Assembly: GCA_965224165.1 (NCBI GenBank)
Contig: CBDCYM010000011.1
Coordinates: 1,522,877-1,586,876, forward strand
DNA from: Methyloligellaceae bacterium
Lineage (GTDB): Bacteria; Pseudomonadota; Alphaproteobacteria; Rhizobiales; CBDCYM01
Length of the DNA: 64,000 bases
Reading direction: 5' to 3'
Made by a program: the position numbers and the translations under genes. Position 1 is the first letter of the stretch; each line of letters begins with the position of its first letter. Shown in pieces: positions 721 to 51,334 of this stretch. The notes beneath the pieces were generated by a model. The model saw nothing but the letters and a program-made list of their open reading frames with translations. It searched no databases and had not been told where the DNA came from.

Positions 721-1103
721 GCATTAGGTCACGAACTCATAAATGTGGTTAAAAATGGTATGAGTCAATCTGTTCGAATACAAGAAGCAAAGGTGCAGGA
801 AATGTGGTGCATTTTCTAACCTTTGCGACGCTGTAGTTGGACAGATTGGCCATATCCTCCGGACGCTGAAACGGCTTCAATCTGCAGCGTCGAAGCGCTT
901 GAAAAGGGAAACAACCCTTGTCTGCACGCTTCTCCTAGATCAACCCACGTTCAAGTAAATTCACTTGAACGTGGTAAAGTTGATCGATATCAAAAAATGA
1001 GAGCATCCAAGCGATTCCATCTAAACGCAGGATGCTCTAGCATCCTTTTGCCGTTTCTAGCGCCATTTTCAGCGCATTTATGAGTCCGTGACCTAGCGTG
1101 GAT
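721..1103. mobile_element. MITE-like unit of about 380 bp bounded by imperfect 20-22 bp inverted repeats (726-745 aggtcacgaactcataaatg; 1076-1095 catttatgagtccgtgacct)
   Basis: The reverse complement of the right end matches the left end at about 19 of 20 positions. The unit encloses the two-hairpin repeat copy A. No credible coding sequence lies inside; ORF 823..1083 is composed of repeat sequence. Confidence 0.4.
947..1056. repeat. Two-hairpin intergenic repeat, copy A. Hairpin 1 is 956-985 with a 12-bp stem. Hairpin 2 is 1011-1049.
   Basis: About 75% identical to 29341-29450. Both hairpins are kept in the second copy through compensatory substitutions. Confidence 0.7.
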
Positions 1104-3963: not shown

Positions 3964-6900
3964 CTAATCGCTAAAAATGAATTCTTCTTCAGGCTCCGGC
4001 TCGCGTTTACGACGAGGAGGTCTCCGCCGGCGCTGAGTTGGTTGTTCAATAGTAATTGCATCCGCTGGTGTTTCAAGCAAATCCGTCGGCAATTTTTCTG
4101 GCGCTAAAATAGAATTTTCCGTCAAACCAGTTGGTGGCAACACCCCTTGAGGGAGGGGGTCTGCAGATTGTCCCGCACCTGTATTGGCGGGCTGTTGCTC
4201 GAATGTGGGCTGGCCGGTATTTGATTGTCCGGGAAGAATAAAACCACCTTGTCCGTTGCGTGGCGCTTCTTGCGGGATGCGTGGTATCTCTTGTGGGATA
4301 CGCGATGTCTCTTGTTGAATGCGCGGAGGTTCTTGAGGAATGCGAAGTGTTTCCTGTTGGATGCGAGGTGCCTCTTGCGGTATGCGTGCGGCGACCCCAT
4401 CTTCACGCAAAGCTTTCTGACGCTTTTCGCGTTGGCGTTGGCTCCAGTATTGTTGTTCTTCCCGTTCCTGCTTTTCTAAACTTTTTTGGATCTGTTCCAA
4501 TTTCTGAACATTTTGCTCTATTTTGCGGACGGTCAAAAAGCGTTCCAATGGTTTGGTATCGATTTGAGGTGTGAGTTGGCCAAATTGTGATAGGGGACCT
4601 GAAAAGGCGAGTGTGACAGGAGGTAGCTTTTCTGCACCTCCGGGAAGTGGCGCCAAGAGTTGCCAATCGCTACTAAGTTTTAGATTGGGAAGTTCCAAAG
4701 AACTTTTCACTTTCAGGTCTGTTTTGGCGGCGGTTAATTTGATCTGTTGCAACCGGATAACGCCATCGCGGATGACAAATGTTGTATTAAACGGTGATAC
4801 AGGAAATGTTCCGTCTTTGAATTTCTGAGGGAGGCGTGTCGATAAGTTCGGAGATTTATCTTTTGGGTCCCCCATGCTTTCCGCGGCGAGTTTGGATATG
4901 GCATAAGGTGAAAATCTCAAAATCTGGCCTTGACCGACAGAAAGTTTCCCTTTGCCCTGCAAAACAGATATGAGTCCGTGGGGGCTAAGCCCTTCACCAT
5001 TGACCGAAAAATCTAAATTGACAGTGCCGCGTGCCAAGGCTTTCCCTTGGTTGCCTTGTGTCAATGTGCCGAGTTTCGCCTGTTTGATGTGCCCAGCTCC
5101 AGTAAGCTTAAATCTGCCATTAGCGCGCATGAGCTGTCCGGTGGCGGAGAAATCGCCTCCATGTAATTTTCCCTTTAATGTTTTGAGATATAGCCCCCCT
5201 CCTGCAAGTTCGGCTGCTAAGGTACCACCTTTCAATTTAAGACCGCCACCGATATCAAATTTTTCGGCGTTCACGGCAATACGCCCCTGATATCCCTTCA
5301 GGACTTCTTTATCAAAAGGCTGGTTTGGCCAAAATGATGCTGATTGGTTGGCAACGGCGTTTGAAGCAATTTCCAATATGGATTTGTCTTTCCACTGAAC
5401 GACAAAGCCCAGAAGCGTAGGTAATGCCGCCTCGGTAGAGGTCATCGAAACATCAATACGGGCGGGGGTGGAGCTTGAATCAACGACTGCATTTCCTTGG
5501 AGACTGCCAGCCCCCAAACGTCCAGAAATATTGCTTAAACGGTAGGTATTCTTTGTCTTGTTTAGATCTGCCCGGATATTAAGAGCATCTTTCATATCAT
5601 TTGATGTATTGCCAAATCCAATCAAAGCCAAAGGAACCGCTGCCGTTTTTGATGAGACTTTTACGGTGCCGTCCATCTCTGTTATGTCACCGTCATCTGA
5701 CATTTGCACAAGCCCGTCAAAGTTGAACCGGGTGTCTGCGGCATCAAGGGAGAGAGTTGTTTTTACGCCTTTGTTTGGTACTCCATGCCCATGGAAGACG
5801 AGTCTTCCCGCACTCGAAGCCAGAGCATTTTTAGAAAGCGAAGCGGACGCCATTTGCCGGATCAGTTCTGCCCCTTTGGGGTTTTCAGCCGTCATGGAGA
5901 TATTTAAGGGCTTTGCACCCAAATCAGCAAACCTGCCTTCATGATGCATTTTGAGTGAAATATGGCTATCGGCCGCCATGCCATCGACTTTGAATTCAAA
6001 GCCAGAGCGTGTTTGGTTACCTGTATTGAGAGATCCAGCCAGTCTAAGAGGGCTAAGGGTTCTAAGGCGTTTTGGATTCTTTAAGAGAGCGCTCGGCAGT
6101 GCGATCATTTCACCAAGTTGATGAAGGGCTACCGCGCTCTCCGCCTCAACCATAAAATTAATGGCGCCTTTAGAGGCTGCATTTGATTGATCAATCTGTC
6201 CATCTGCACGGATTAAAATGCCATCCTCCGATGCCAGATGAAGCTTATTGATGGCAAGCCTGCCATCCTTCATTTGTAAGTCGGCATCCAAGTCGCGCCC
6301 ATTAAAGCCGGACATCAAAAGATGGCCTACCCGAAGTTTGATACGCGCATTAGCTTGATTTAGAAAATCCGCCGTGGAATTGCCATCTATAGTTGCTGCC
6401 CTTGCATTGGTAATCAGTTGGCGTTTTGATTGTTTTTGAAGCTGTTGCCCCCCGGTGTCGAGATATTTCTTAATGAGTTCCCGCGGTGAAGATTGGGGGC
6501 CCAATATATCGACAAGATTGAAGCGATCACCGTCAAGCGTGAGTTCGAAGTTTTTCTTATCACCAAACTCATAGTGTAAGGCGGCCGAGAAGGCTGATCC
6601 GGCGGCCTCCCCACGCAATTGTTTGACCCGAAGTGCGTTTGGCCTGAGGGTCAAATGCCCTTGTGCAAAATAATGCTCACTGCGCACTGCTTGGGGCTTT
6701 TCCCTTCGAGAAAGCGCCCAACGTGTCAGTAGTCCAAGGTTGCTCCCTCTCAAGGAAAACGGTCCTGAAAACGCAATGCCCTTCTCTCCGGCTTGAAGTT
6801 GACCATTTAAGTTCAACTCGCTAGCACCCGGAAGACCGGCACGCATGTTAGTAATCTTAAAAACATCGCCAGTCTTGGTCAGGCGTAGTTTAAAATTCCT

Positions 6901-8016
6901 CACAAGTTCGCCGCCTAGGCTAGCTTGCTCCACACTGGCTTGAAGTGATCCACGAGAAATAGCAGGTGCCAGGTCATGCAACGTCCAAGCGAACAATTCA
7001 AATGCTTCTTGAGGAGCGCCTTCCCCGGTTTCGCCACGGCCAAGGGATTGGTCGAGATCAAGCCAACGTGCCTGAACCTGAGCATTTACATTGAAGCCGT
7101 CGTTCCAATCGACCGCTGCTTTGCCTTGGAGGTTTTGCGGTCGGTTTTTACTTTCAAAAGCAATTGTTAGGTCATCAAGAACAGCCTGTTTCAGTGAGGC
7201 GTTCACTTTTGCTTTCATTTCAACCGGACGGATATCTTTTCCAATGGGAATTTCCGCAGTTAATTCTCCGGTAAGTCGAGGGGCCTTATTGGGTGTGCTG
7301 AGATGCCCATCAAATGTGTAAACGTTGCCGGATTGCGTGATTTGAACCACGGACTTTACGCGCATTACGCCGCCTTTTTGCCAGCGTCCTGTCGATAAGC
7401 GAATCTCACGCCGTTTGCCTTGTCCATTGACATGACCGGTAAATTTGTAGGGGCCTTCTAGGGTACCTGCAGAAAGCGTTCCGTTGAAATCATTCAAAGT
7501 AAATGTTTTCTTGCTACCGATTTGACGGAAGAGTAATCGGCCATCAGTAATCTTAACTGAATTAAGCGCGACTTCTTTGGGCATAAAGGGGACGTTTGCA
7601 TTGGGGTTTCCAATGCCGTGCCAATTTCCCGTGCCGTTTTTTTGAACGTCTAAGCGAATTTCCGGCCGAGTTATCTCAATTTCTTTGGCTACAACCGTCC
7701 CCCTCAGGAGCGGTGAAATCGAAAGCCAAATGGTAAAATCATCTGCTTCGAGGAAGGGGTTCTGAATACCCCCTCGTTTCAAATCGGCAATGCGAACTTT
7801 CTGAAAACGCATAAAGGGAACTGGCAAAAGCCTCATGCTGACCGAGCCGTCGACTTTCACAGTACGGCCAATCAATTTTGAAGCGTGGGCCTCGAACACA
7901 TGGCGATAATTGTTCCACTCTACAAAGTGAGGGACTGCAAAAAGGACGCCGACCACAAGGATGAGAAGGCCTGCCAGAATATTTAGGAAGGAGTTCAAGG
8001 GGCTCTCCACCTCCAT
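3964..8016 (-). CDS. AsmA family outer-membrane biogenesis protein, 1350 aa, with a C-terminal proline/glutamine-rich 7-aa repeat region
   Basis: N-terminal signal-anchor (LILVVGVLFAVPHFVEW), very large size, and AsmA-like beta-rich composition. C-terminal repeats read RIPQE(A/P)PRIQQET. Confidence 0.75.
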   Translation of the reverse strand: MEVESPLNSFLNILAGLLILVVGVLFAVPHFVEWNNYRHVFEAHASKLIGRTVKVDGSVSMRLLPVPFMRFQKVRIADLKRGGIQNPFLEADDFTIWLSISPLLRGTVVAKEIEITRPEIRLDVQKNGTGNWHGIGNPNANVPFMPKEVALNSVKITDGRLLFRQIGSKKTFTLNDFNGTLSAGTLEGPYKFTGHVNGQGKRREIRLSTGRWQKGGVMRVKSVVQITQSGNVYTFDGHLSTPNKAPRLTGELTAEIPIGKDIRPVEMKAKVNASLKQAVLDDLTIAFESKNRPQNLQGKAAVDWNDGFNVNAQVQARWLDLDQSLGRGETGEGAPQEAFELFAWTLHDLAPAISRGSLQASVEQASLGGELVRNFKLRLTKTGDVFKITNMRAGLPGASELNLNGQLQAGEKGIAFSGPFSLRGSNLGLLTRWALSRREKPQAVRSEHYFAQGHLTLRPNALRVKQLRGEAAGSAFSAALHYEFGDKKNFELTLDGDRFNLVDILGPQSSPRELIKKYLDTGGQQLQKQSKRQLITNARAATIDGNSTADFLNQANARIKLRVGHLLMSGFNGRDLDADLQMKDGRLAINKLHLASEDGILIRADGQIDQSNAASKGAINFMVEAESAVALHQLGEMIALPSALLKNPKRLRTLSPLRLAGSLNTGNQTRSGFEFKVDGMAADSHISLKMHHEGRFADLGAKPLNISMTAENPKGAELIRQMASASLSKNALASSAGRLVFHGHGVPNKGVKTTLSLDAADTRFNFDGLVQMSDDGDITEMDGTVKVSSKTAAVPLALIGFGNTSNDMKDALNIRADLNKTKNTYRLSNISGRLGAGSLQGNAVVDSSSTPARIDVSMTSTEAALPTLLGFVVQWKDKSILEIASNAVANQSASFWPNQPFDKEVLKGYQGRIAVNAEKFDIGGGLKLKGGTLAAELAGGGLYLKTLKGKLHGGDFSATGQLMRANGRFKLTGAGHIKQAKLGTLTQGNQGKALARGTVNLDFSVNGEGLSPHGLISVLQGKGKLSVGQGQILRFSPYAISKLAAESMGDPKDKSPNLSTRLPQKFKDGTFPVSPFNTTFVIRDGVIRLQQIKLTAAKTDLKVKSSLELPNLKLSSDWQLLAPLPGGAEKLPPVTLAFSGPLSQFGQLTPQIDTKPLERFLTVRKIEQNVQKLEQIQKSLEKQEREEQQYWSQRQREKRQKALREDGVAARIPQEAPRIQQETLRIPQEPPRIQQETSRIPQEIPRIPQEAPRNGQGGFILPGQSNTGQPTFEQQPANTGAGQSADPLPQGVLPPTGLTENSILAPEKLPTDLLETPADAITIEQPTQRRRRPPRRKREPEPEEEFIFSD
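4255..4400. repeat. About seven tandem 21-bp repeats (cttgNgggatgcgNNgtNtct) encoding the heptad RIPQExP in the asmA C-terminus
   Basis: Periodicity is visible in the nucleotide sequence and in the translation RIPQEAPRIQQETLRIPQEPPRIQQETSRIPQEIPRIPQEAPR. Confidence 0.8.
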
Positions 8017-19820: not shown

Positions 19821-19896
19821 TGGCGCCCCCAAGGGGACTCGAACCCCTGTTTCCGGCGTGAGAGGCCGGCGTCCTAGGCCACTAGACGATGGGGGC
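19821..19896 (-). tRNA. tRNA-Glu (anticodon CUC), 76 nt including an encoded CCA
   Basis: Reverse complement is GCCCCCATCGTCTAGTGGCCTAGGACGCCGGCCTCTCACGCCGGAAACAGGGGTTCGAGTCCCCTTGGGGGCGCCA. It has a 7-bp acceptor stem, anticodon stem CCGGC/GCCGG with loop CTCTCAC, and T-loop GGTTCGAGTCC. Confidence 0.88.
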
Positions 19897-28585: not shown

Positions 28586-29101
28586 CGTGTTTCCTAGCAG
28601 AATTTTTCCAGTTTAATAGGTGGATGTTGATATTTGAAGGTGAAGCTTAGGTGAGTATCACATCTAATGCAATTCAGAGTTGACGCGGAAGGGTTTTTCA
28701 TATCATAATCCAAATATAGATATGAACGGAGGTTTAAGAAAATGACCCCTCCAAAAAGGTTCGAGCTATCCTGAGCGTGCTTTATTACAGCTTTTCCTTA
28801 GGATGGCATAATATTCCATAAGAAAGATCTTTGCGAAAGTTTAACTCCGAACGTATGGTGGGAGAGTATGCTTGTGGTATAGTTCCGAATACATTCAATT
28901 TCCACCTTTTGTTTGGAGTGATGCTTGATAGACCTGATGTGATCAGGTGGGCCATATGAGGCAGTAGTTACAACGTATGCTGTGCTGACATGGGGTTATC
29001 CGGGCGGAGCAACGTAAAGGACCTGCAAAATCGCGAGAGGCCCGACATCACTGAGTTAGGACTGTATCAAACGTAAGGAATTCAGTAAAAGTCAAGGAGG
29101 G

Positions 29102-29138
29102 GGCCTCGTGAACATGGACTCACGAGGCCCTTTTCTTG
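29102..29138 (+). terminator. Rho-independent terminator-like hairpin (ggcctcgtga-N8-tcacgaggcc followed by CTTTTCTT) with no annotated + strand gene upstream
   Basis: 10-bp perfect stem plus a T-rich tract on the + strand only. It is preceded by about 500 bp with no credible ORF. Confidence 0.4.
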
Positions 29139-29170: not shown

Positions 29171-29257
29171 AACCATCCACCACCCCCTGCCACCCGCCAT
29201 ATTCTGCGATAATTAGGCGGGTGGCAGGGGGTGGCCCGAAGGGAGTATTTAGAGATG
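29171..29257. repeat. Long palindromic repeat element, copy 2 (each arm differently truncated)
   Basis: The core ctgccacccgcc-atattctgcgataattag-gcgggtggcag is identical to copy 3. The right arm keeps cccgaagggagtatttagagatgccc. Confidence 0.85.
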
Positions 29258-29340: not shown

Positions 29341-29450
29341 TGAGAGTCACTAGATCAATCTGCGTTCAAGTGGATTCACTTGAATGCAGAAAAATTGATC
29401 GATATCAAAGAAGTAGAGCATGTTAAGCGAACTCACTTGAGCGCAACATG
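29341..29450. repeat. Two-hairpin intergenic repeat, copy B (hairpin 1 at 29350-29379, hairpin 2 at 29404-29445)
   Basis: Aligns with 947-1056. Stem differences are compensatory: ccacg/cgtgg against ctgcg/tgcag, and catcc/ggatg against catgtt/aacatg. Confidence 0.7.
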
Positions 29451-29519
29451 CTCTAGAATGTGGGATGATACTCCCCGGTGACAGTATGATGTTGGGCGAA
29501 ATATTGGAGATCATATTTC

Positions 29520-33232: not shown

Positions 33233-33279
33233 GTATTTGAGCCAGATTATCAGTCTGGTCCAGGTTATGAGCCTGGTCG

Positions 33280-33351
33280 ATCAGATAGAAGGAATCGAAC
33301 CTTCGTCCCATTGGGGGAAACCCAATTGCTCTACCTCTGAGCTATATCCGA
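33280..33351 (-). tRNA. tRNA-like cloverleaf, 72 nt, with an aberrant anticodon arm (6-bp stem with a 5-nt loop, or loop GUUUCCC reading UUC). Possibly a tRNA pseudogene or tRNA-derived element.
   Basis: Reverse complement is TCGGATATAGCTCAGAGGTAGAGCAATTGGGTTTCCCCCAATGGGACGAAGGTTCGATTCCTTCTATCTGAT. D-arm and T-arm are canonical (TAGCTCAGAGGTAGAGC; GAAGGTTCGATTCCTTC). The acceptor stem has a G3·U70 wobble and no CCA is encoded. The anticodon loop is not a canonical 7-nt loop with a purine at position 37. Confidence 0.4.
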
Positions 33352-49573: not shown

Positions 49574-50737
49574 ATGGTGCATTTTGCGCAAAATATGGAG
49601 CGCCTTGGGACGGAGACAGCCTTTGAAGTTCTTGCTCGCGCGGGTGAACTGGAGCGCCAGGGCCGTAGCATCATCAATCTTGGGATTGGTCAACCAGACT
49701 TCAAAACGCCGGAGCACATTGTTGAAGCGGCGGTTAAGGCTCTTCGTGACGGGCATCATGGCTATACCCCCAGTCAGGGCATTTTGCCGCTGCGCGAGGC
49801 GGTCTCTACGGATTTGCATAAGCGCTATGGTGTTGAAGTTAATCCTGACCACATTGTGATTATGCCGGGTGGTAAACCCACGATGTTTTTTGCAATCTTG
49901 ATGTTTGGAGTACCTGGCACGGAAGTCCTTTATCCCGATCCCGGTTTTCCCATTTACCGGTCCATGATCGAATATACCGGTGCTACCCCTGTGCCTATTG
50001 CGCTTCGTGAGGAGAATGGATTTTCCTTTAGTGCCGAAGAGGTGCTTGAGCAAATCACGGAAAAGACAAGACTGATTATTCTCAATAGTCCAGGAAATCC
50101 AACAGGAGGCGCTGTTCCGGAAGAAGAGATGACCCGTCTTGTCGAGGGGCTGTTAGCCCACCCGGATGTGGCTATTTTGTCTGATGAGATTTACAGCCAA
50201 ATGCTCTATGACGGACGAGAGCATGTGACCTTGCTACGTTATCCGGAAATTAGAGACAGACTGATCCTTCTCGATGGTTGGTCAAAAACCTATGCCATGA
50301 CGGGATGGCGCCTTGGTTTCAGCGTTTGGCCGCAAGCGTTGGTAGAAAAGATTGTTCGGCTTGCCGTCAATTGCCATTCCTGCATTAATGCGCCAACGCA
50401 ATATGCGGGCATTGCCGCCCTTGAGGGACCGCAGGATGAGGCCCGGAAAATGGTGCAAGCCTTTGATGAGCGCCGCCGGATCATTGTGCCGTTGCTCAAC
50501 CAACTTCCTGGGCTTAGCTGTGTCGAGCCTGGCGGGGCGTTTTATGCATTTCCTAATGTGACAGGAACAGGGTTCAGCGCAAAGGAGTTGCAGAACAAAA
50601 TGTTGGAAGAGGCTGGTGTGGCAACAGTGGCAGGCACAAGCTTCGGTGAATTCGGTGAAGGCTATATCCGCTTTTCGTATGCCAATTCGGTTGAGAGTAT
50701 CAAAACTGCAATTGAGCGTATTGGTGGGCTGCTCTAA
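49574..50737 (+). CDS. pyridoxal-phosphate-dependent aminotransferase (class I, aspartate/aromatic aminotransferase-like)
   Basis: 387 aa, fold-type I aminotransferase pattern with conserved Lys region (…DGWSKTYAMTGWRLG…). Confidence 0.85.
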   Translation: MVHFAQNMERLGTETAFEVLARAGELERQGRSIINLGIGQPDFKTPEHIVEAAVKALRDGHHGYTPSQGILPLREAVSTDLHKRYGVEVNPDHIVIMPGGKPTMFFAILMFGVPGTEVLYPDPGFPIYRSMIEYTGATPVPIALREENGFSFSAEEVLEQITEKTRLIILNSPGNPTGGAVPEEEMTRLVEGLLAHPDVAILSDEIYSQMLYDGREHVTLLRYPEIRDRLILLDGWSKTYAMTGWRLGFSVWPQALVEKIVRLAVNCHSCINAPTQYAGIAALEGPQDEARKMVQAFDERRRIIVPLLNQLPGLSCVEPGGAFYAFPNVTGTGFSAKELQNKMLEEAGVATVAGTSFGEFGEGYIRFSYANSVESIKTAIERIGGLL

Positions 50738-50797
50738 CTGTTTATTGCCGCATATCTTTTTTTCGCAAAACCAGTACCCGCTTTTGCGAGATATGCT

Positions 50798-51334
50798 TTA
50801 ATTTTTGAGAAGTTTCCAAATAAGCTTGAATGCTGTTTCGACCGTTTTTATGCGGACTTCACTTCGGCCAATATCCCCAAAGAGGCATTTACGATGAACA
50901 TATCCGCCCTTACGTGTCGCTGCGGCAATGTGCACTAAACCAACAGGCTTTTTTGCGCTACCACCGCCAGGACCCGCAACGCCTGTAACCGCAACAGTTA
51001 CATCCGCATCTGAATGAGCCAAAGCGCCTTTGGCCATAGCGCGTGCGGTTTGTGCGCTGACAGCACCGTATTTTGTGAGCATATGGTCAGGAACGTCTAA
51101 GAGGGCCATTTTTGCTGGGTTTGAGTAGGTCACGAATGCCCGGTCGACGACATCTGAGGACCCGGGAACCTCGGTTAACACGGCCGCGATTAATCCGCCT
51201 GTGCAGGATTCAGCTGTCGCAAGCTTTAGTTTAGCACGTCTTAGATCCTTAAGAAGGTATTTTGCCTGTTCTATAAGATTATCAGTCAGCACGGCAGAAT
51301 CTCTCTGAGAAAGCCTATAATTGCACCAGTTCAA
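50798..51334 (-). CDS. CinA family protein (nicotinamide-nucleotide amidohydrolase PncC-like C-terminal domain)
   Basis: …LATAESCTGGLIAA… motif typical of the CinA C-terminal domain, 178 aa. Confidence 0.75.
   Translation of the reverse strand: MNWCNYRLSQRDSAVLTDNLIEQAKYLLKDLRRAKLKLATAESCTGGLIAAVLTEVPGSSDVVDRAFVTYSNPAKMALLDVPDHMLTKYGAVSAQTARAMAKGALAHSDADVTVAVTGVAGPGGGSAKKPVGLVHIAAATRKGGYVHRKCLFGDIGRSEVRIKTVETAFKLIWKLLKN

Follow-up and report, generated by a model that had tools for sequence, protein, structure and literature searches.

The window analyzed here is the whole 64,000-nucleotide (64-kb) stretch of a Methyloligellaceae bacterium genome (contig CBDCYM010000011.1, positions 1,522,877 to 1,586,876), and positions refer to it unless another sequence is named. 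Near the left end of the window, a 572-nucleotide spacer separates a truncated alpha/beta-hydrolase ORF, which ends at position 637, from a co-directional cation:proton antiporter ORF at positions 1210-2466 (Pfam Na_H_Exchanger). The spacer contains an element of 367 bp (727-1093), or 265 bp when a unit nested within it is left out. Promoter and terminator scans stayed at or below shuffle expectation and gave no terminator. Rfam searched over the whole window at gathering score returned only two tRNAs, neither of them within 721-1103, and at E values up to 10 the region 600-1250 gave only spurious snoRNA and miRNA matches. Two tRNA-Glu genes with different anticodons (CTC and TTC) are located on the minus strand at 19821-19896 and 33279-33351. 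Also on the minus strand is an ORF of 1350 residues (3964-8016). Its end consists of a run of short, nearly identical repeats (RIPQEAPRIQQETLRIPQEPPRIQQETSRIPQEIPRIPQEAPR) and, after them, a charged tail.

The outer boundary of the element is a real inverted repeat. A repeat search of the window returned two arms of 30 nucleotides each (725-754 and 1066-1095) that are 87% complementary and have 311 nucleotides between them. The terminal core, GGTCACGRACTCATAAATG, is 19 nucleotides in length and is found at 727-745 and 1075-1093. Written as GGTCACGAACTCATAAATG, it matches 727-745 on the plus strand with no mismatch and 1075-1093 on the minus strand with one (18 out of 19). When up to three mismatches are allowed, these are the only two matches in the 64 kb, and shuffled sequences lead one to expect 0.01. 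A preliminary description of this DNA had put the arms at 726-745 and 1076-1095; the left arm is exact on the plus strand, and the right arm is off by one on the minus strand and measures 1075-1094. The segment 721-1103 has a fold z-score of about -13 on either strand. This extreme predicted fold arises because the segment is composed of nested palindromes.

Read from left to right, the outer element starts after a TA at 725-726 (context cat-TA-GG) with the left terminal inverted repeat, GGTCACGAACTCATAAATG, at 727-745 on the plus strand; beyond this core, imperfect pairing extends the arm as far as position 754. An internal hairpin module follows at 761-852 (plus strand). It is composed of a stem, in which 764-777 pairs with 837-850, and an apical hairpin at 787-830. 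TA brackets the module (759-760 and 853-854), whose ends are TGAGTCAATCTG and CAGATTGGCCA, and the module may itself have been inserted at an earlier time. The central and right interior located 5' of the more recent nested unit (858-935, plus strand) is conserved across the family in alignments and includes the hairpin GGGAAACAACCC. On the far side of that unit, the right subterminal part, GCATCCTTTTGCCGTTTCTAGCGCCATTTTCAGCG (1040-1074, plus strand), base-pairs with both 861-875 and the left subterminal arm. The element is closed by the right terminal inverted repeat at 1075-1093, which reads GGTCACGGACTCATAAATG on the minus strand, and is followed by a TA at 1094-1095 (context CC-TA-gcg).

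The sequence GGTCACGNACTCATAAATG was scanned against one genome per prokaryotic species, a collection for which about 17 chance matches were estimated. The terminal 19-mer was found at 63 or more loci, almost all of which are alphaproteobacterial. Among the matches listed are Ensifer, Rhizobium, Roseibium, Parvibaculum, Magnetovibrio, Rhodobacteraceae, Roseovarius, Sulfitobacter, Acidimangrovimonas, and Rhodospirillales. Many other genomes thus carry the same terminal repeats, which the preliminary description had proposed searching for, and the surroundings of the copies are unrelated. No paper that prints the terminal-repeat string turned up in a literature search. The matches can be sorted into two classes: full-length insertion sequences (IS) and short elements without a transposase. 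Many matches of the first class lie 76-95 nucleotides from contig ends or within whole contigs of 850-880 bp, and they extend into an 877-bp element.

The full-length class is represented by an 877-bp IS that carries the same left end (L024, 297-1173; L020, 5937-6813; L056, 2169-3044; and L036) and is also found at many contig ends. This IS has two ORFs in different frames, with the Pfam domains DUF4096 (PF13340) and DDE_Tnp_1 (PF01609). Its transposase scores 267 bits (cutoff 110) with the NCBIfam model NF033580, IS5 family transposase. A tblastn search of plasmids with the IS confirmed that label, and megablast of the IS against the plasmid collection gave no match. The left and right ends of the IS are GGTCACGCACTCATAAATG and GGCCACCGACTCATAAAC, respectively, and C-TA-G flanks both. 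The left repeat of the window element differs from GGTCACGCACTCATAAATG once only, at an N position. Members of the IS427 group measure 832-865 bp, carry a 2-bp direct repeat, and encode a frameshifted transposase in two ORFs (PMC3281130, Table 2). The size, two-frame transposase, and flanks of the 877-bp IS thus fit the IS427 group of the IS5 family. A transposase-bearing element with matching ends, also proposed earlier as something to look for, is accordingly available in other genomes.

A tblastn search of the window with the IS proteins identified no transposase within the 64 kb. The best 120 OrfB relatives (identity of at least 69%) include none from the 4,226,890-bp source contig, which is a weak negative. 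On these two results, the window copy may be an orphan that lacks a resident transposase. The IS end was also seen in L024 and L042, which are MAGs labelled Opitutaceae and Pyrinomonadaceae; this is either cross-phylum transfer or binning contamination.

The short class consists of elements in which plus- and minus-strand copies of the 19-mer are 157-271 bp apart with no transposase. Positions 725-936 and 1037-1095 of the window are colinear with elements of about 262 bp at approximately 71-80% identity (BLAST, MAFFT). These homologues occur in Ensifer, Roseibium, Magnetovibrio, uncultured Alphaproteobacteria, and two Phyllobacterium plasmids, and the plasmid records have no feature annotated at these positions. 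The 64-kb window has a single copy. Elsewhere, among the matches listed, a Roseibium MAG has at least four copies and an Ensifer MAG has them at no fewer than 10 loci. The copies lie between long ORFs beside unrelated neighbour genes, in at least six genera. Similarity between these elements and the IS extends over the terminal 19-25 nucleotides or so, and the interior of the window element (746-1074) is unlike the IS interior. Both ends of the window element resemble the left end of the IS; the right end, GGCCACCGACTCATAAAC, is different. Because the homology is confined to these terminal nucleotides, the element is no simple deletion derivative of the IS. The family is instead one of non-autonomous transposable elements (MITEs) that match the IS in their ends and not in their interior.

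One unannotated family copy is located on plasmid p_1 of Phyllobacterium sp. 628 (L075, 1504-1771), with a racemase gene on one side and msrB on the other. Both of its terminal repeats have co-varied (GGTCGTACACTCATAAAT and ATTTATGAGTGTACGACC), and its TA flanks are kept. An empty-site search found no related plasmid without the insertion.

TA is present on both sides of the element, outside the GG...CC, in 14 of the 21 copies, and the other seven deviate by one base. The wider flank context of the copies is YTA...TAR. The window copy has TA at 725-726 and 1094-1095, so that the target-site duplication sought outside the repeats following the preliminary description has a counterpart both here and in most of the family. 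TA is palindromic, and in any single copy it is inseparable from two extra bases of inverted repeat; it is presumed to be a target-site duplication rather than repeat sequence. TA flanks in a YTAR context are consistent with the 2-bp duplication of IS427-group elements.

An ORF of 86 codons (823-1083) is present mechanically within the element, and its C-terminal half crosses the nested unit. It has no Pfam match. The homologous frame contains stops in 6 of the 18 copies, and length differences between copies are not multiples of three. The earlier opinion that this ORF is not a gene agrees with these results. It is an accident of the repeat sequence, and the outer element encodes nothing.

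The nested unit, GATCAACC...GGATGCTC, is a 100-bp two-hairpin repeat at 938-1037 (plus strand). Hairpin 1 spans 938-983, hairpin 2 spans approximately 1000-1037, and the linker between them is GATATCAAA. CTAG brackets the unit at 935-938 and 1037-1040. The TA inside each CTAG (936-937 and 1038-1039) would be the left and right duplication copies of the nested insertion, and the family reads CTTCTCCTTGCATC at the left position. The ends of the unit, GATCAACC and GAGCATCC, are weakly inverted and match at 6 of 8 positions. The preliminary description had placed this repeat, its copy A, inside the inverted repeat, and it is indeed located there (935-1041), with a second copy at 29350-29457. Its further suggestion that the two-hairpin element is the cargo of the MITE has to be given up, as positions 938-1037 are missing from all 17 of the full-length homologous copies compared. 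The family sequence across the junction is CTTCTCCTTG followed by CATCTC, versus CTTCTCC-TA-[G938...C1037]-TA-GCATCC in the window. When 939-1040 is deleted, the result is CTTCTCCTAGCATCC, which has the family length and differs from the family by one base within that junction. The absence from all 17 homologues, the deletion that restores the family sequence, the CTAG/TA bracket, and the recurrence of the unit elsewhere together indicate that a second small structured repeat was inserted later into the MITE, an order of events that we infer from these comparisons. The 17 uninterrupted copies serve as empty sites and thereby show that the unit is insertable. By this comparison, the two-hairpin unit is an independent repeat that entered a resident MITE.

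The second copy in the window (29350-29457, plus strand) is 76% identical to copy A. It is bracketed by CTAG and lies outside any MITE, in an unrelated spacer of 935 nucleotides. A metagenome scan with the conserved linker gave five matches. Two are true further copies (L068, 2033-2141, and L069, 854-961), and three (L067, L070, and L071) were rejected as chance matches to the linker pattern. A covariance model, R1, was built from four copies (938-1037, 29350-29457, L068, and L069), and 29350-29457 scores 120 bits with it. The four copies share GATCAA/TTGATC, the linker GATATCAAA, and AGAGCA/TGCTCT. Their inner stems differ in sequence and keep their pairing, with compensatory changes in 13 of 29 pairs. 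A weak R1 match at 50691-50799 of the window was discarded, as neither the conserved linker nor the conserved stems are present in it. Searching the plasmid collection with the unit gave no match.

Model R1 also identified a distant relative at 1014-1132 of L044 (45.7 bits). The MITE copy in L044 directly adjoins this relative with its right end, and a CTAG is common to both. From this arrangement it seems that TA/CTAG sites serve both element types and that the two tend to accumulate together. TA/CTAG is present on both sides in three of the five two-hairpin copies; in the remaining two, one or both flanks deviate.

The MITE family is itself variable in its internal make-up. A 157-bp Ensifer variant is without the 104-bp internal module and is otherwise 91% identical to a 262-bp Ensifer copy. 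Short variants of 157-176 bp with the same terminal repeats were found at L021 1831-1987, L026 2731-2887, and L037 130-305; apart from the Ensifer variant, these have only the arms in common with the family, and their interiors are unrelated. Given the variant without the module and the arm-only variants, the family is a mosaic.

Structure is conserved across the family. In an alignment of 18 copies, 91.5% of the cells of the consensus structure are paired, compared with 32-42% with slid partners, and compensatory changes are present in 33 of the 55 pairs, compared with 12-17 in the slid controls. Much of this covariation comes from the internal module, that is, from the pairing of 764-777 with 837-850 and the apical hairpin; helices 2-4, which make up this module, have compensatory changes in 22 of their 26 pairs. 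G-U pairs outnumber A-C mismatches by roughly 61 to 28 in the orientation shown. This is a biased count, since that strand was the one used for predicting the structure and the copies share a phylogenetic history. The G-U excess is a weak hint of constraint at the RNA level. The covariation could come from selection on an RNA or single-stranded DNA (ssDNA) structure, from maintenance of the palindromes, or from nested palindromic insertions.

The gene neighborhood was compared in the contigs of five antiporter homologues (P0002, P0006, P0007, P0008, and P0011; amino-acid identity of 75-81%, which places them among the closest found). In all five the upstream genes are entirely different, the spacers are short, and the contigs are free of the terminal repeat. 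The same arrangement conserved at this locus in relatives, which the preliminary description had named as part of what would speak against a mobile insertion, was not seen in these contigs. No empty orthologous site was found among them either, because the nearest antiporter homologues (at most 81% amino-acid identity) are not syntenic.

On this evidence, the segment 727-1093 is very probably a non-autonomous transposable element with IS427-group-like ends into which a second repeat was later inserted. The preliminary reading of a MITE-like insertion stands, with the match to the IS end, the TA flanks, the dispersed homologues, and the lack of conservation at the locus in its favor. Mobilization would have been in trans. 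A transposase of the IS427-group type, supplied in trans, would bind both 19-bp ends, which are copies of the left IS repeat. The outer element would have been inserted at a YTAR site in the spacer between the alpha/beta-hydrolase and cation:proton antiporter genes, and duplication of the central TA would have given 725-726 and 1094-1095. Later, the unrelated 100-bp repeat with two stem-loops would have entered the MITE at a CTAG in its interior, with TA/CTAG on both sides, enlarging the element from 265 to 367 bp. The empty hydrolase-antiporter site is predicted to read ...gacagcatTAgcgtggat... within a spacer of about 203 nucleotides.

It is unlikely, though compatible with the MITE reading, that the MITE is in addition a mobile module of structured RNA or ssDNA, with hairpins selected for acting on neighbouring transcripts through stability, processing, or termination. 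The covariation of helices 2-4 would fit such a role, as these internal helices do not bind transposase, and so would the ratio of G-U pairs to A-C mismatches. Other bacterial MITEs, for example MITEPye1, are likewise predicted to fold as RNA (PMC11578231). On the other side, palindrome maintenance at the DNA level or nested palindromic insertions could give the same covariation, the G-U count carries the strand bias and relatedness noted above, and the orientation of the copies relative to neighbour genes has no clear bias in the few interpretable cases. A wider form of this idea is similarly doubtful. It would make the terminal inverted repeat family a mosaic mobile platform, with selected hairpins (including those of the nested unit) that influence neighbour genes as RNA or ssDNA, and with small palindromic repeats that home into each other's TA/CTAG sites.

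Far less probable is a regulatory hairpin or structured noncoding RNA specific to this locus, which would control the antiporter or terminate the hydrolase transcript and would be conserved in place and immobile. The fold on both strands, the position between two co-directional genes, and the strong covariation of the family would suit such a regulator. However, the same element is found several times per genome and beside unrelated genes in at least six genera, and the copies are not systematically upstream of antiporter-like genes. This dispersed distribution contradicts a locus-specific regulator. The antiporter homologues of relatives have other neighbours and no element, the locus gave no Rfam match, no terminator, and no promoter pattern above chance, and the ends of the element are identical to the end of an IS. 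An in-situ remnant of a full-length IS427-group IS, decayed by internal deletion and with no transposing MITE family behind it, is slightly less probable still. Such a remnant would account for terminal 19 nucleotides equal to the left IS end, but not for two ends that both resemble that left end, for an interior (746-1074) unlike that of the IS and with no remnants of a transposase gene found in it, or for homology over the whole length to transposase-less elements of other genomes. A chance match between the arms is discounted altogether, given two occurrences where 0.01 were expected and the extended homology in other genomes.

The MITE reading explains both the 572-nucleotide spacer and the spurious 86-codon ORF; both call for annotation as repeats, in place of a gene or an RNA gene. 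A MITE family that had gone unannotated, common across Alphaproteobacteria and with a clear IS427-group partner, is defined in the process, together with a clear case of one small repeat nested in another. Work on structured mobile DNA or RNA gains a modest lead from the strong covariation in both repeat families. The element class is already well known as an ordinary parasite of bacterial genomes, and the finding is of modest interest.

The closest known elements are the IS of the IS427 group (IS427, IS1248, ISPpa2, and the 877-bp IS of L024, L020, and L056). They share with the window element the 19-bp terminus, the TA duplication, a YTAR/CTAG-like target, and alphaproteobacterial hosts. The window element differs from them in having no transposase gene, a length of 367 bp compared with approximately 850-880 bp, and an unrelated interior.

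Correia/NEMIS elements of Neisseria are approximately 100-155 bp in length and have terminal repeats, a TA duplication, and folded transcripts. Bacterial MITEs such as these and MITEPye1 are, like the window element, small, non-coding, and intergenic, with terminal inverted repeats, a short duplication, long stem-loops, and ends that match an IS. MITEPye1 of Paracoccus yeei is paired with IS1182 (PMC11578231). Unlike MITEPye1 and Correia, the window MITE has an IS427-group partner and a second repeat nested inside, and its sequence is unrelated to theirs.

Intergenic palindromic repeats named in rhizobia include RIMEs (Rhizobium-specific intergenic mosaic elements), Sm-repeats, and AB/C motifs (PMC2573895). 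The nested 100-bp unit is like RIME by description, as an alphaproteobacterial intergenic repeat with two large palindromes, conserved linkers, and covarying stems. RIME was reportedly described by Osteras et al. in 1995 as an element of about 100 bp with two large palindromes. Its mosaic character is common to both element families described here. REPs are 20-40 bp long and are linked to RAYT (IS200/IS605-like) transposases. The REP/BIME sequences of enterobacteria are also short, dispersed, structured extragenic palindromes and are often targets of other insertions. In contrast to them, the window element has no RAYT-type signature.

The 935-nucleotide spacer that contains the second two-hairpin copy lies between divergent ORFs and has further structure of its own. 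A terminator-like hairpin is located at 29093-29138 and is followed by a T run, and a GC-rich inverted repeat at 29180-29234 has 24-nucleotide arms that are 92% complementary. These extra hairpins are odd between divergent ORFs and may belong to a small RNA, a small gene, or more repeats.
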